A DNA stretch of 64,000 nucleotides from a virus (IMGVR_UViG_3300002835_005179:1-64000), one strand, 5' to 3'. Positions 24,540 through 33,390 are shown, counted from the first letter of the stretch. The notes: generated from the sequence alone by a model not told the origin. Numbers and translations are program-made.

Positions 24540-24770
24540 ATGTTCACAATTAATTCAGCAACCAATCCTAATGATCGAAATCTTAATAATTATTATCTAA
24601 AACATTTTAAAAATAATAATAAATTGTCTCAAGAATTGAAGAAACAAATAACACCAAAACTTATTTCTGATGCTATCAAAGAAGCAATATCACAATCAAA
24701 AAAAACCAAGGACAAGGGATATAAATTAGAATTCACAATCGACGGTATAAAACCCGTAGAGGAACAGTAA
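24540..24770 (+). CDS. hypothetical protein
   Basis: 76-aa lysine-rich ORF. Confidence 0.4.
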   Translation: MFTINSATNPNDRNLNNYYLKHFKNNNKLSQELKKQITPKLISDAIKEAISQSKKTKDKGYKLEFTIDGIKPVEEQ

Positions 24771-25762
24771 TGTTATCTTTTAAATCTTTTCTTATACTAG
24801 AAGGTGGCGTCGGGGGCCACATGGCGCATGTTTTTGACATATCTTCAACTGGAAAAGAATTGATTGGAGTATTTAAGGAAGCAATCAAATTCATCAATTC
24901 TGGTAAGACATCTGTTAAGATAGATGGAATCAATGCTTCACTTCGTTTGGTTGAAGGAAAATTTGTTCTAGATCGTGGTTCGGCAAAGCCTTTGGATATT
25001 AAAGGAATTCGTCCAGAAGATTTGGAAGATAGATTTGGACAAGGACATGGATTTGTTGAAAAAGGAAAGAAGATAATTGACATTTTTGACACAGCTTATC
25101 CGAAAATTAAGCCAGAATTGGAGAAACTTGGTCTTTTAAATAATCCTAATATCTTATTCAATACTGAGTATGTTGAAGGTAAGACTAATGTTGTTCAATA
25201 TGAAGGAATCGATAATTTCTTAGCAATCCATGGATTAAAAGAAATTAAGGTTAATAAGACAAATCCAAAGACTGGCGTTGTTACATCAAGAGTAGCTTCC
25301 AATATTTCATTCGATCAAACAACAATGGCTTCTCTTATCAAGAAATTAGATGAAGTTGCAAAAGCTTTTGGATTTAAAGTTCTCGGTAATGTTGGTGTAA
25401 CATTCAAAGAGAACCCTGATTTAACCAAGGTTTTATCAGAAGAGATTACTCTAAACGAACAAACTAAAACGCTTGGAGAATGGTTATCTAATCTGACATT
25501 TAAGACTCCTCTAATTACAAGAGCAAAATTCATCCAAATTATGAACTCAGATAAGAAAGATCTTACTGAGAAACAACTTACAGATTATCTAGTTTATATT
25601 GCAACTATTCGCCTTGGTGATGAAATTCTTAATAGTTCAACTTCAGATCTAGGCGATCTTAAAGGTCAAGAAGGAATCGTCATAAGAAGATCTGATAATT
25701 CTTTATACAAAATAACTGGATCGTTTATTCTTCGTGGATTAGAATCTACATTTGGAAAGTAA
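24770..25762 (+). CDS. KxDG nucleotidyltransferase (ATP-dependent RNA/DNA ligase-like) with capsid-targeting-like N-terminus
   Basis: N-terminus MLSFKSFLILE (like T4 CTS MKTYQEFIAE). Motif I SVKIDGINAS, motif IV-like QEGIVIRR and LYKITG. Confidence 0.35.
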   Translation: MLSFKSFLILEGGVGGHMAHVFDISSTGKELIGVFKEAIKFINSGKTSVKIDGINASLRLVEGKFVLDRGSAKPLDIKGIRPEDLEDRFGQGHGFVEKGKKIIDIFDTAYPKIKPELEKLGLLNNPNILFNTEYVEGKTNVVQYEGIDNFLAIHGLKEIKVNKTNPKTGVVTSRVASNISFDQTTMASLIKKLDEVAKAFGFKVLGNVGVTFKENPDLTKVLSEEITLNEQTKTLGEWLSNLTFKTPLITRAKFIQIMNSDKKDLTEKQLTDYLVYIATIRLGDEILNSSTSDLGDLKGQEGIVIRRSDNSLYKITGSFILRGLESTFGK

Positions 25763-27926
25763 TATGTCTAAGAAATATTTCGCACGTCTATCTAAGTCTA
25801 CAGCTACTAAAAGAAAAACATTCTGGAAGAAACTTGGTTCTTATCCGTTCACTAAAGATGAGTATGATCGTGCGGAAAAAGTTCCTGGAGATGCGAAGTC
25901 TGAGACAAGACCATCGCAATATAATAAGAAGTATAGAGAAATGTATGAAGCAGTACATAATGAAGCTCCTTATCTAAAATGGGGTATTATTTCTCCAACT
26001 GGTAAAGTTATTTCTGGCGATGAATATAAAAGTAGTGATAATTTGAATCATGCATCATTTCTTGTCAGACTTGGGTTAGAAAAAGAATACGATCTAAATG
26101 GGAAAAATTCGAACTATTCAAGATATGCTATTTTGAAGGATGTCTATGGATTAACCTCAATAATAACCATACCAGGTCGTGCAAAAATTGATTCTGTTAT
26201 AAAAGCATGGAAAAATATTCCGATGGGAGATGATATATTAATCTTACTTAGTAAGTATAATGATGATGAATATGAAGGTCCTTCATCTAAAGCTCTATCG
26301 TGGTTAAAACAATATAAATCAAAAGTACAAGAAGAATATGACGAAATCAGTGAATCCAGATCAATCAAGGCGCTTCAAAAGAAAGCAAAAGCTTCTGGTG
26401 TTCCTTATTCTATCTTGAAGCGAGTTTATAATCGTGGTATGGCTGCTTGGGTTACAGGACACAGACCAGGTGCAACACAATCTGCTTGGGCATTTGCAAG
26501 AGTCAATTCGTTCCTAACAAAAGGAAAGACTTGGTATGGGCCAGATGCAGATCTCGCGAAGAAAGCAAGAAAGTATCTACAAGAAGCTCATTTTATACCA
26601 CAATATTTTGATTGGGGCTGGATTGATGATCGTGGAAATATTCAATATCCAGAAGAGCATGATAGAACACATACATCTATTCTAAGAAGATTAACAGAAA
26701 AACAACCTGAATATAATTTGGGCGATAGGCCAACAGAAACTGATGCAACAAAACAAGGTTGGATTCGTTGGGTAGTTGAATACAGCAATTCTGAATTTGT
26801 TTTATTTTTCAATACAAAGAAATTGATTAAAACGATAAAGATGTATAGATCTATAGAAAATATTGTAAATAAACATAAAGATTCGTCATATATTTCATTT
26901 GATTTGCCTAGAAAATTTATACAATCTAGAACGAGGAACGAATTCATGTTAGAGCTATCTAAGGTATTTGGAATAAAAGAAGATCAAGATTACGAAATAG
27001 AAATGATTTCTGGACAATTAAAGAAAATTATAGATCTATCTACAGATACCTTGAATATTATCCAGAATCAGTCAGAAATTCCTGCATGGATTCAAGATAA
27101 GATCTCAGTTTCTACTCATAACGCAGAAGCAATATTTGATTACTACAATTATTCGGAAGAAAAGATTCAAGAAGAAACGCAGATGAAGAAAGTTGTCATA
27201 TTTCCAGGTGGTTTCCATCCATTCCATAAAGGCCATTATTCGGTTTATACTGCAATCAAAAAGAAATTTCCAGATGCAGATGTATATGTTGCTTCAACAA
27301 ACGAACAAACCGAAAGACCATTTTCATTTGAAGATAAAAAATATCTAGCAAGTCAACTAGGAGTTCCTGAGAAATCATTCGTTGAAGTAAAGATTCCATA
27401 TGTTGCTACAGAGATTACACGGAAATATGATAAAAAGAATACGATAGTTATCTTTGCTATTTCTGGAAAAGATCCAGATAGAATCTCTTACACAAAGAAA
27501 GATGGTACACCAGGATACTTTGCAGAATGGACTGGTGAAAATGTCGAACCATTTGAATCAAAAGGATATATCTTTATTACACCAAAGGTAGATTTTAAGA
27601 TTGCAGGTAAACAAGTTGATTCTGCTTCAATGATTAGAAAAATGTATAAAGAAGCTGATGATTCAGAAAAGAATCAAATTATCAAAGATATGTATCCTGG
27701 TGGTGATGTCAAAAATATTAAAAAAATCTTAGACAATAATTTGATAGATTCTACACAAGAATCAGTAGAAATTATTTCTGAAACTATCAGATGCAGTAAG
27801 AAGACTGGTAAGAATATCTGTTTCGTATTCTCTAAAAAGGGTAAGAAGATGGGTGGTCCATATTCTGAAACGAAAGCCAAGAAAAGACTCAGACAAATTG
27901 AATTCTTCAAACATTTAAATAAATAA
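25752..27926 (+). CDS. large multidomain protein with C-terminal HxGH nucleotidyltransferase (NMN/NaMN adenylyltransferase-like) domain
   Basis: C-terminal VVIFPGGFHPFHKGH matches the GG(T/F)xDPxHxGH motif of the NadD/NMNAT/cytidylyltransferase class. The N-terminal 480 aa are unknown. Confidence 0.4.
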   Translation: MESNMSKKYFARLSKSTATKRKTFWKKLGSYPFTKDEYDRAEKVPGDAKSETRPSQYNKKYREMYEAVHNEAPYLKWGIISPTGKVISGDEYKSSDNLNHASFLVRLGLEKEYDLNGKNSNYSRYAILKDVYGLTSIITIPGRAKIDSVIKAWKNIPMGDDILILLSKYNDDEYEGPSSKALSWLKQYKSKVQEEYDEISESRSIKALQKKAKASGVPYSILKRVYNRGMAAWVTGHRPGATQSAWAFARVNSFLTKGKTWYGPDADLAKKARKYLQEAHFIPQYFDWGWIDDRGNIQYPEEHDRTHTSILRRLTEKQPEYNLGDRPTETDATKQGWIRWVVEYSNSEFVLFFNTKKLIKTIKMYRSIENIVNKHKDSSYISFDLPRKFIQSRTRNEFMLELSKVFGIKEDQDYEIEMISGQLKKIIDLSTDTLNIIQNQSEIPAWIQDKISVSTHNAEAIFDYYNYSEEKIQEETQMKKVVIFPGGFHPFHKGHYSVYTAIKKKFPDADVYVASTNEQTERPFSFEDKKYLASQLGVPEKSFVEVKIPYVATEITRKYDKKNTIVIFAISGKDPDRISYTKKDGTPGYFAEWTGENVEPFESKGYIFITPKVDFKIAGKQVDSASMIRKMYKEADDSEKNQIIKDMYPGGDVKNIKKILDNNLIDSTQESVEIISETIRCSKKTGKNICFVFSKKGKKMGGPYSETKAKKRLRQIEFFKHLNK

Positions 27927-33286: not shown

Positions 33287-33306
33287 TTTTATAGGAAATG
33301 GTAAGT

Positions 33307-33390
33307 ATGAAATCATTTAAATCGTTCGTAACGGAAAAGAAATTTGCAGATCTTAAACCAACAAAAGGTAAATGGGCAAACTTATCATAA
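33307..33390 (+). pseudogene. 28-codon remnant copying the N-terminus of the upstream gene (MKSFKSFVTE...GKW)
   Basis: MKSFKSFVTEKKFADLKPTKGKWANLS versus MKSFKQFLIENELSIGKWEII in ORF 31967. Confidence 0.35.

Follow-up and report, generated by a model that had tools for sequence, protein, structure and literature searches.

The DNA considered here is a stretch of 64,000 nucleotides (nt) from a virus, IMGVR_UViG_3300002835_005179:1-64000, referred to throughout as the window, and the subject is a group of genes at 24540-33390 (the island), several of whose otherwise unrelated products begin with a short N-terminal leader resembling the capsid-targeting sequence (CTS) of the internal proteins (IPs) of phage T4. 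The source of the window is an uncultured marine T4-like myovirus of about 33% G+C, whose major capsid protein shares 63% identity with its counterpart in Pelagibacter phage HTVC008M, 62% with that of Methylophilales phage Melnitz and about 58% with those of cyanophages. A megablast search with the island against 50,697 phage records gave no match, and the clade is therefore uncultured; metagenome contigs of up to 115 kb carry proteins identical or nearly identical to those of the window. As will be argued below, the island's products are probably addressed to the interior of the head by a propeptide of the T4 type, and the island itself would be a late-expressed, fast-evolving array of cassettes.

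The island lies between rIIA/rIIB (21166-24137) on one side and gp55/gp47/gp46 (33453 onward) on the other, and comprises the following open reading frames (ORFs) and transcription signals, with lengths in amino acids (aa) and isoelectric points (pI) where these are of interest.

24480-24503 (+): intrinsic-terminator-like hairpin followed by a T-run, closing the rIIA/rIIB unit 5' of the island
24513-24520 (+): T4-type late-promoter motif TATAAATA, 20 nt 5' of the first island ORF
24540-24770 (+): first ORF of the putative late unit, a basic protein of 76 aa that matches no family; stop codon overlapping the start of the protein A gene
24770-25762 (+): protein A, 330 aa, leader MLSFKSFLILE (24770-24802), predicted RNA-ligase-like nucleotidyltransferase
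25764-27926 (+): protein B, 720 aa, DUF5824 and cytidylyltransferase-like domain, without leader
27918-27925 (+): late-promoter-like motif AATAAATA, 17 nt 5' of protein C
27942-29990 (+): protein C, 682 aa, pI 4.4, leader MKNFSQIRNE, no family match
30000-30287 (+): protein D, 95 aa, acidic, hybrid leader MNSFTKAYMEVLNE (30000-30041)
30287-30676 (+): protein E, DUF7207, without leader; homologue of cyanophage T4-GC198 and HTVC008M gp140
30673-31584 (+): protein F, Acb1 (T4 57B) 2H-phosphoesterase domain with a C-terminal extra domain
31592-31966 (+): protein G, DUF7201 coiled coil with a hydrophobic C-terminus, without leader; homologue of cyanophage T4-GC201
31967-33286 (+): protein H, 439 aa, pI 9.4, leader MKSFKQFLIE (31967-31996), GNAT-like and GH19 muramidase domains
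33307-33390 (+): remnant of 27 codons, leader MKSFKSFVTE and 17 residues of a GNAT-like paralogue

On the plus strand of the window, 10 of 16 ATAAATA motifs sit 15-55 nt 5' of gene starts, the genes so marked including 1183, gp18, gp19, 7676, gp22, gp23 and 13070 as well as the island genes at 24540 and 27942. In view of the terminator at 24480-24503, and of late motifs in common with the structural genes, the island most likely forms, as they do, a late transcription unit.

The leaders at 24770, 27942, 30000 and 31967 open their ORFs and take the form M-(K/L)-(S/T/N)-F-x-x-(F/I)-…-E. A sequence-only reading of the window had listed six related N-termini, in two groups, and all six are real and lie where it placed them (24770, 31967 and 33307 in the first group; 7676, 13070 and 30000 in the second), and the case is stronger than it had made out; it missed the leader at 27942 and a further copy at 29337, which is internal to protein C. 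It was also right that each of the six has a hydrophobic-x-Glu triplet within residues 8-16: L8-I9-E10 at 31967, I9-L10-E11 at 24770, V8-T9-E10 at 33307, L12-N13-E14 at 30000, and I14-x-E16 at both 7676 and 13070. Its description of these as a cluster of large proteins does not hold for 33307, which has only 27 codons.

In T4, IPII and IPIII start MKTYQEFIAE↓A and IPI starts MKTFKEFTSTTTPVSTITE↓A (the arrow here and below marks a cut, known or presumed, after Glu). According to the part of PMC9026906 that summarises Mullaney & Black (1996), residues 4 and 7 of the T4 CTS mainly govern targeting, while 8 and 10 govern processing, and it is at these mapped positions that the first group, whose likeness to the T4 CTS the sequence-only reading had noted, agrees with T4: the marine leaders keep an aromatic residue at 4 and 7, an aliphatic one at 8 and Glu at 10. 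The leader MKTFKQFIFE of one relative (L001) has 7 of its 10 residues in common with the T4 CTS. Within the window, F4 and F7 are found at 24770, 31967 and 33307, F4 and I7 at 27942, and F4 with Y8 at 30000, while the group-2 leaders have F6 and Y10, shifted by two residues relative to targeting positions 4 and 7. At the processing positions 27942 has R8 and E10, but it also has L-T-E at residues 20-22, which recalls the 19-residue leader of IPI.

Such a likeness could in principle arise by chance, but this was rejected. When a strict form of the leader pattern was counted on the window's 77 ORFs of at least 80 aa, 0.004 matches were expected and 3 were seen at ORF starts; two further strict matches are that at the internal Met at 29337 and that at 33307, whose ORF falls below the 80-aa cut-off. 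Over all loci collected to that point, the motif is about 20-fold enriched at N-terminal relative to internal Met (Fisher p = 2e-16). In a six-frame translation of the window, 6 of 7 matches to the group-1 pattern lie inside 24770-33390, all on the coding strand.

Relatives of the island were collected through gp55 (80 loci), and the six closest were compared in detail. These have a common backbone of B, C, E, F and G, whereas the leader-bearing genes differ; two of them (L003 and L004), for instance, have two tandem leader genes, of 397 and 398 aa, that are absent from the window. At least seven families begin with the leader in these six loci, and behind it no similarity between them can be detected; island genes are split, fused or lost from one relative to another, so that “hyperplastic”, the term used for the cluster in the sequence-only reading, is an accurate one.

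A wider search was made of IMG/VR, using a degenerate DNA pattern for MK(S/T)FK(Q/E)FxxE in which position 8 was left free. At least 120 stretches match, and what follows refers to the 127 matches listed. Nearly all of these begin an ORF: in 117 no ATG intervenes between the leader's Met and the in-frame stop that precedes it, others start within a few dozen codons of such a stop, and in just 3 is the leader 58-178 codons into a longer reading frame. Homologues of window genes are carried by at least 92 of the loci, and in several of the remainder inspection of the ORFs revealed T4-type genes for the clamp loader, tail tube or sheath. Grouped by their mature parts, the 124 proteins that reach 40 aa make up 54 families, between which BLAST gives no link at E <= 1e-3, for which reason whole-protein paralogy was rejected as the source of the similarity. 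The 33 nt of leader DNA occur in 119 distinct versions, with synonymous codons freely used, yet position 8 is I, V, L or M in 43 of the 54 families, against a background of 0.23 (p = 1e-18), and the P1' residue (that after Glu) is enriched for A/S (p = 2e-4). The diversity of the DNA together with the aliphatic position 8 therefore shows that selection is on the peptide and not on the DNA, and that it is such as a gp21 site requires.

Behind these leaders are found, amongst others, nucleotidyltransferases with FGRFNPPTVGH and a 37-member family of S-adenosylmethionine (SAM) lyases (Pfam PF23780; L245 9471-9965 and 36 other loci) with the leader MKTFKEFI(N/D/Q)E↓SS, which occurs also in cyanophages P-TIM68, S-H34, S-N03 and S-CREM2; the leader-bearing SAM lyase is predicted from its sequence to be a packaged anti-restriction or anti-BREX enzyme. 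The Pfam domains of both Acb1 and SAM lyase in relatives begin behind the leader. In these comparisons the leader is the constant element, with domains and whole genes reshuffled behind it.

The one experimental link, albeit an indirect one, comes from cyanophage S-SM1, a relative whose major capsid protein is about 58% identical to that of the window. Purified S-SM1 virions contain a “putative cytidylyltransferase”, T4-GC190, the product of a cyanophage core gene (Sullivan et al. 2010, PMC3037559). The T4-GC190 proteins start MKKFSAFLNE↓A in S-SM1, MKSFSQFLTE↓T in P-SSM2 and MKKFSTFISE↓A in S-ShM2, and the Melnitz homologue starts MKKFSEIIE↓A. When both strands of the whole S-SM1 genome were searched with the strict leader pattern, exactly two ORFs were found, SSM1_190 (T4-GC190) and SSM1_192 (T4-GC1455, MLSFKELQE↓K), and both of these were detected in purified virions by mass spectrometry, with 25 and 7 peptide counts respectively, as compared with 18 for the portal and 8 for gp21 (PMC3037559, Table S8). 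As 41 of about 234 S-SM1 proteins were detected, the chance of both leader ORFs being virion proteins is about 0.03. The neighbours SSM1_188, 191, 195 and 197 are also virion proteins (PMC3037559). The S-SM1 module is syntenic with the island (the ligase-like GC71 with KWDG; GC198, corresponding to E; GC201, corresponding to G), and HTVC008M and Melnitz have a corresponding module with leader-bearing members. In cultured phages the leader is carried by gp126 and gp139 of HTVC008M, by genes 15, 16, 18 and 27 of Melnitz and by PSSM2_194 of P-SSM2.

The machinery on which a T4-type propeptide would depend is encoded in the window's head and tail module, which runs gp18 (3558), gp19, gp20 (6085), three or four small ORFs, gp21 (8971), gp22, gp23 (10845). 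The features of it that matter here are as follows.

7676-8068 (+): 130-aa protein with group-2 leader MNLENFKQAYVKTISE↓S, its gene placed between portal and protease; TATAAATA 16 nt 5'
8705-8974 (+): very basic 89-aa protein, pI 12, starting MLNE↓K, directly 5' of gp21, in the gp68 position
8971-9612 (+): gp21 prohead protease, with PHROG and PDB matches
9650-10801 (+): gp22 scaffolding core protein, presumed docking partner of the leader
10845-12104 (+): gp23 major capsid protein
13070-13327 (+): 85-aa protein, highly acidic and different from 7676 but with a group-2 leader, encoded after gp23; AATAAATA 15 nt 5'

The sequence-only reading had assigned gp21 to 8971, and the database matches and the conserved catalytic residues, His in GELGHP and Ser in GVSTRG, agree with this. 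The protein begins MKLLTE, which aligns with T4 QLLIE, and IITE49↓S in gp23 aligns with the T4 maturation site FLTE65↓A.

The first 20 nt of 13070 and 7676 are identical, and in 80 loci collected through gp21 for comparison of the head module the group-2 leader, MNL[EQK]NF[KR]..Y...I[ST]E↓S, belongs to a paralogue family with one copy between portal and protease and one to three after gp23. In more distant T4-likes, ORFs between portal and protease carry group-1 leaders (MKTFKSFIKE, MKKFKDFILE), and homologues of 8705 there carry a full leader (MIGFKEFIE, MIRFKEFISE↓A). The T4 prohead core proteins gp67 and gp68 are likewise encoded between portal and protease and are cut by gp21 at (L/I)-x-E. 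BLAST comparison of 7676, 8705 and 13070 with T4 gp67/gp68 gave no significant similarity, and 8705 was rejected as a gp68 homologue on the ground that a profile of its family scores 1 bit on T4 gp68. Because of these results only a positional analogy to gp67/gp68 is claimed: all three agree with the T4 proteins in position and charge pattern and not in sequence, and for 8705 and gp68 the agreement is limited to gene position and a basic C-terminus.

Three further ORFs of this region may be mentioned. One of about 51 aa at 8127-8282, lying between 7676 and 8286, has conserved counterparts in the closest loci (MTQTERTKIE... in L083 and L089) and, by position and size, may be a gp67-like small core protein. 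At 12247-13056, between gp23 and the head-module gene that follows it, there is a GIY-YIG-type homing-endonuclease-like ORF in the same place as segD in T4, at which relatives have either a different endonuclease-like ORF or none, and at 13324-13938 (-), by the head module, there is, besides gp21, a ClpP/S49-type protease-like ORF that matches PHROG “head maturation protease” families at E ~1e-24.

Turning to the individual island proteins, the core of protein A begins at GGVGGHMAH, directly behind the leader, and it has 679 homologues; in the 120 of these that were listed, conservation of the core sets in at EGGxGGHM, the leader ahead of it being variable. The sequence-only reading had seen a KxDG ligase-like fold here, and this stands: K50-I-D-G53, which supplies the motif I lysine, is invariant across 30 homologues, and an AlphaFold2 model (predicted local distance difference test score, pLDDT, 88, with residues 1-15 disordered at pLDDT <50) has RNA or DNA ligases as all of its top 37 Foldseek matches, T4 Rnl1 being matched with probability 0.99, though E is ~1e-3 and TM-scores are low, at ~0.3. 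A sequence search against the PDB gave no match, and tblastn against phage records gave one weak match only, to Microcystis phage Mel-JY01. On the strength of the model, protein A would be an RNA-ligase-like nucleotidyltransferase with the fold of the ligase superfamily, and, since the window also encodes a canonical T4 Rnl1-type RNA ligase (42111-43208, +) and a polynucleotide kinase (62175-63116, -), it would be a ligase-like enzyme additional to these.

Protein A is consistently paired or fused with a nucleotidyltransferase. In the window A and B are separate genes in different frames, with 2 nt from the stop of one to the start of the other; relatives have them fused (940 aa in L001, 554-3376, and L002, 465-3287; 679 aa in L006, 1055-3094), with B lying behind an A-like, leader-bearing N-terminus; and in cyanophages the pair corresponds to the adjacent genes T4-GC71 and T4-GC190. 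Two segments of B are held in common with leader-bearing cytidylyltransferases of Melnitz, HTVC008M and another locus (L211). A short domain with W-G-(W/I)-I-x-x-x-G occurs twice in B (25980-26090 and 26610-26720) and once in the C-terminal extension of F (31100-31200), and a B-like protein of L004 aligns with that same extension (26% over 141 aa).

Protein C has its leader MKNFSQIRNE followed by LLTE at residues 19-22, and in addition an in-frame internal leader copy at 29337-29363, EEEE followed by MKTFKEFNE↓T, the first seven residues of which are the same as those of T4 IPI. About 28 of 38 homologues have the internal copy, its distance from the C-terminus being always 204-242 residues, and in four loci there is a Shine-Dalgarno-like GAGG/GGGG 5-6 nt 5' of it (GAGG in the window). 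It may serve as an internal start for a nested leader-bearing product, or as a second site of docking and cleavage. Protein D has no homologue in the six closest loci. Protein F starts MMLLE, directly ahead of the first residue (G6) of the Acb1 fold, and in gp55-derived loci L035-L040 Acb1 occurs as 150-aa ORFs with a full leader, MKTFLEYVTE, directly before the fold. The T4 57B protein itself (L081 13953-14411), the gene for which directly adjoins ipI, starts MMEFKDF, resembling a degenerate CTS that lacks the Glu site.

Protein H consists of a GNAT-like domain (to ~32581), a short Gly/Ala-rich hydrophobic linker and a GH19 domain (~32858-33271). The GH19 muramidase domain had already been recognised in the sequence-only reading and is confirmed by matches to Pfam (3e-11) and to PHROG endolysin families (2e-26). 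The N-terminal domain has no Pfam match; in Foldseek, all 50 of the top 50 matches to a model of pLDDT 72 are GNATs (E ~4e-3), and the conserved K-I-Q-G-I-G-H-D-G fits the Q/R-x-x-G-x-G/A acetyl-CoA loop. L001 and L002 encode the halves of H in two distinct genes, each with a leader, while in L005 the leader stands almost directly on the GH19 module. Immediately downstream, the 27-codon ORF at 33307 reads MKSFKSFVTEKKFADLKPTKGKWANLS*; in relatives the gene at this position, just 5' of gp55, is intact and encodes about 200 aa (L001 9305, MKTFKQFIFEKTFSDLNPKKGDW; L002 9213; L005 9338), and by comparison 33307 is the stump of such a GNAT-like paralogue.

Given that unrelated enzymes share a nearly identical tag of the kind that loads the T4 head, the island probably encodes enzymes that are made in advance and injected. 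The steps would be as follows. During prohead assembly the leader of about ten residues, M-(K/L)-(S/T)-F-(K/S)-x-F-(L/I/V)-x-E, would bind the gp22 scaffolding core; gp21 would then cut after the Glu of (L/I/V)-x-E, and the mature proteins would remain alongside the DNA in the head and pass into the host with it. The cargo would comprise A (paired or fused with B), the acidic C with its second, internal leader, the small acidic D, and H with its GNAT-like and GH19 domains, while the group-2 leaders at 7676 and 13070 would mark proteins of the prohead-core type encoded in the head module. Packaging and processing by gp21, as the sequence-only reading had suggested for the whole family, is well supported by inference and by the indirect link through S-SM1: the features seen in silico agree with a propeptide of the T4 type, except that two members, 7676 and 13070, are more core-like than cargo-like and a third, 33307, is a remnant.

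There are nonetheless several points that weigh against this interpretation. At position 8 the leader of protein C has Arg in place of an aliphatic residue, that of protein A has its Glu at position 11, and B, E, F and G are without a full leader. None of the island proteins, taken over its full length, has an excess of [LI]xE triplets, a result on which the alternative that these are [LI]xE-rich proteins of the degraded-scaffold type was also rejected. A further caveat is that 7676 and 13070 look more like prohead-core paralogues than cargo. Detection in S-SM1 refers to the whole particle, and shows neither removal of the leader nor location inside the head; moreover SSM1_188 and SSM1_191 are virion proteins although leaderless, so that the leader is not the only route into the particle. 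Finally, packaging, cleavage and ejection in the window phage and its close relatives are extrapolated from T4.

The alternative that survives best concerns protein H alone, namely that it is a plain endolysin for lysis from within, and not packaged. Its GH19 domain, preceded by a Gly/Ala-rich hydrophobic stretch, would suit a lysis enzyme just as well: the domain matches endolysin families, the stretch, which in L005 is near the N-terminus, is reminiscent of signal-anchor-release endolysins, and in T4 the lysozyme gene e adjoins ipIII and ipII. However, the stretch is only about 11 residues long and in the window sits behind a GNAT-like domain of 200 aa, the GH19 module keeps a full leader in every relative whatever lies between them, and the H gene is in a late unit with other leader-bearing genes. 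A purely lytic H thus seems unlikely, and in any case a role in lysis and a packaged one are compatible with each other.

It is also conceivable, if distinctly improbable, that the shared N-terminus works as a tag with some role besides packaging into the head and that its likeness to the T4 CTS is convergent. It might be an amphipathic helix for targeting to a membrane or complex, although the leader is without the long hydrophobic stretch that a membrane signal needs; it might be a start cassette for efficient translation, and AAA/AAG at codon 2 and AT-rich starts do favour initiation, yet neither the upstream DNA nor the codons are conserved; or it might be an address for the tail or baseplate, and here the points just made, that packaging in the window phage is deduced, that S-SM1 does not place the proteins in the head and that leaderless neighbours reach its virion too, all leave room for such a reading. 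What tells against all of these is that the conserved positions are exactly those mapped in T4 for targeting and processing, that position 8 is aliphatic in most families even though it was left unconstrained in the search, and that the leader is found also on proteins encoded between portal and protease. That the leader is merely a recombination scar of tandem duplications (by ancestry or gene conversion) with no function of its own can be largely discounted, since, for all that 7676 and 13070 share 20 identical nt at their starts, that relatives have paralogues of the GNAT-like family 1 and tandem duplicates, and that the 33307 stump shows ongoing decay, the mature parts are unrelated, the peptide stays constant over highly diverse DNA, and the motif is retained all the way from coliphage T4 to relatives among the cyano-, pelagi- and methylophages, at a capsid-protein identity of only ~38-63%.

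If the head-targeting propeptide is accepted as the best explanation of the leader, a broader proposal suggests itself, which is put forward tentatively and with slightly less than even confidence: that the T4 decapeptide is an ancient tag found across the superfamily, by which T4-likes of the ocean (of the cyano-, pelagi- and methylophage lineages) pre-load their heads with catalytic enzymes for counter-defence and takeover that act the moment the DNA enters. These enzymes would include the Acb1 cyclic-nucleotide phosphodiesterase, SAM lyase, nucleotidyltransferases, the RNA-ligase-like enzyme and the GNAT-muramidase fusion. Acb1, a phosphoesterase that counters CBASS, and SAM lyase are of known anti-defence type, and the leader-bearing versions of both in relatives suggest delivery of counter-defence enzymes. 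Were this so, counter-defence could start before any phage gene is expressed, and a single line of motif would be enough to predict the injected proteome of phages not yet cultured. Even on the narrower supposition that the tag works in marine T4-likes, a simple N-terminal motif would flag proteins that abundant, mostly uncultured viruses deliver ready made, and would explain the presence of the “cytidylyltransferase” and its neighbours in cyanophage virions; and natural leader variants are on offer for the packaging of proteins in T4-like capsids.

Some other features of the window may be noted in passing. Just 5' of rIIA, at 20392-21083, there is low-complexity repeat DNA, reading (GL)n or (SGSW)n according to frame, with no evident function. 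The window also encodes a nicotinamide phosphoribosyltransferase (17753-19276, -), and an ORF of 1061 aa adjoining DNA polymerase (52608-55793, -) has no PHROG match at E <= 1e-5.

It remains to compare the island with known systems. The T4 proteins IPI, IPII and IPIII (Mullaney & Black 1996; Repoila et al. 1994) are alike in having an N-terminal propeptide of ~10-19 residues in which position 4 is aromatic, 7 is Phe, 8 is aliphatic and 10 is Glu, with a small residue next; in carrying one tag on otherwise unrelated proteins whose genes cluster in hypervariable loci; and in the presence of the gp21/gp22/gp23 system. Even the neighbourhoods are similar, in that ipI adjoins 57B (Acb1) and ipIII/ipII adjoin the lysozyme gene e, while the island holds both Acb1 and a muramidase. 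In the T-even coliphages about ten IPs have been recognised by their signal sequence, of which Ip1-3 are inhibitors of the restriction enzyme GmrSD (PMC12373910; PMC3012670), and the T4 IPs are described as small (~8-21 kDa), non-enzymatic GmrSD inhibitors, and only in Tequatrovirus (PMC12373910). The window's cargo differs in being mostly enzyme-like, with lengths of 95-682 aa and, in relatives, of up to 940 aa, and it differs too in belonging to a distant lineage of marine phages, in including one carrier with a second, internal tag, and in that a group-2 variant of the leader marks proteins of the head module. The principle of tag and inject is thus already known from T-even coliphages, and what is new is the cargo and the phage group. 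The literature searched, coverage of which was partial, so that an earlier description is possible, yielded no description of the leader outside T-even phages and no account of enzymatic cargo or of a leader on T4-GC190.

Close too is the cyanophage T4-GC190 module, which is alike in its leader, its ligase-like GC71 neighbour and its DUF7207 and DUF7201 proteins, virion detection applying to the cyanophage only; Sullivan et al. (2010) did not remark on the leader in their treatment of T4-GC190. Protein B of the window shares with T4-GC190 only DUF5824 and one further segment and has no leader of its own, and S-SM1 has 2 leader genes as against 4-7 per island in the window's clade.

Another T4 parallel to the cargo is the Alt ADP-ribosyltransferase, a large enzyme that is packaged in the head, trimmed by gp21 and injected, and which, to our knowledge, is without a canonical CTS. 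Proteins carried in the head and delivered with the DNA are also known in T7 (gp14, gp15 and gp16, the last with a transglycosylase domain), P22 (gp7, gp16 and gp20), P1 (Dar) and phiKZ/SPN3US (inner-body proteins); some such ejection proteins are enzymes and anti-defence factors, and those of the giant phages are cut by a prohead protease at x-x-E. All these differ from the T4-type system in that other routes of incorporation are used, the proteins are unrelated, and none has a T4-type decapeptide tag. A muramidase in the head, as proposed here for protein H, recalls the transglycosylase domain of T7 gp16.

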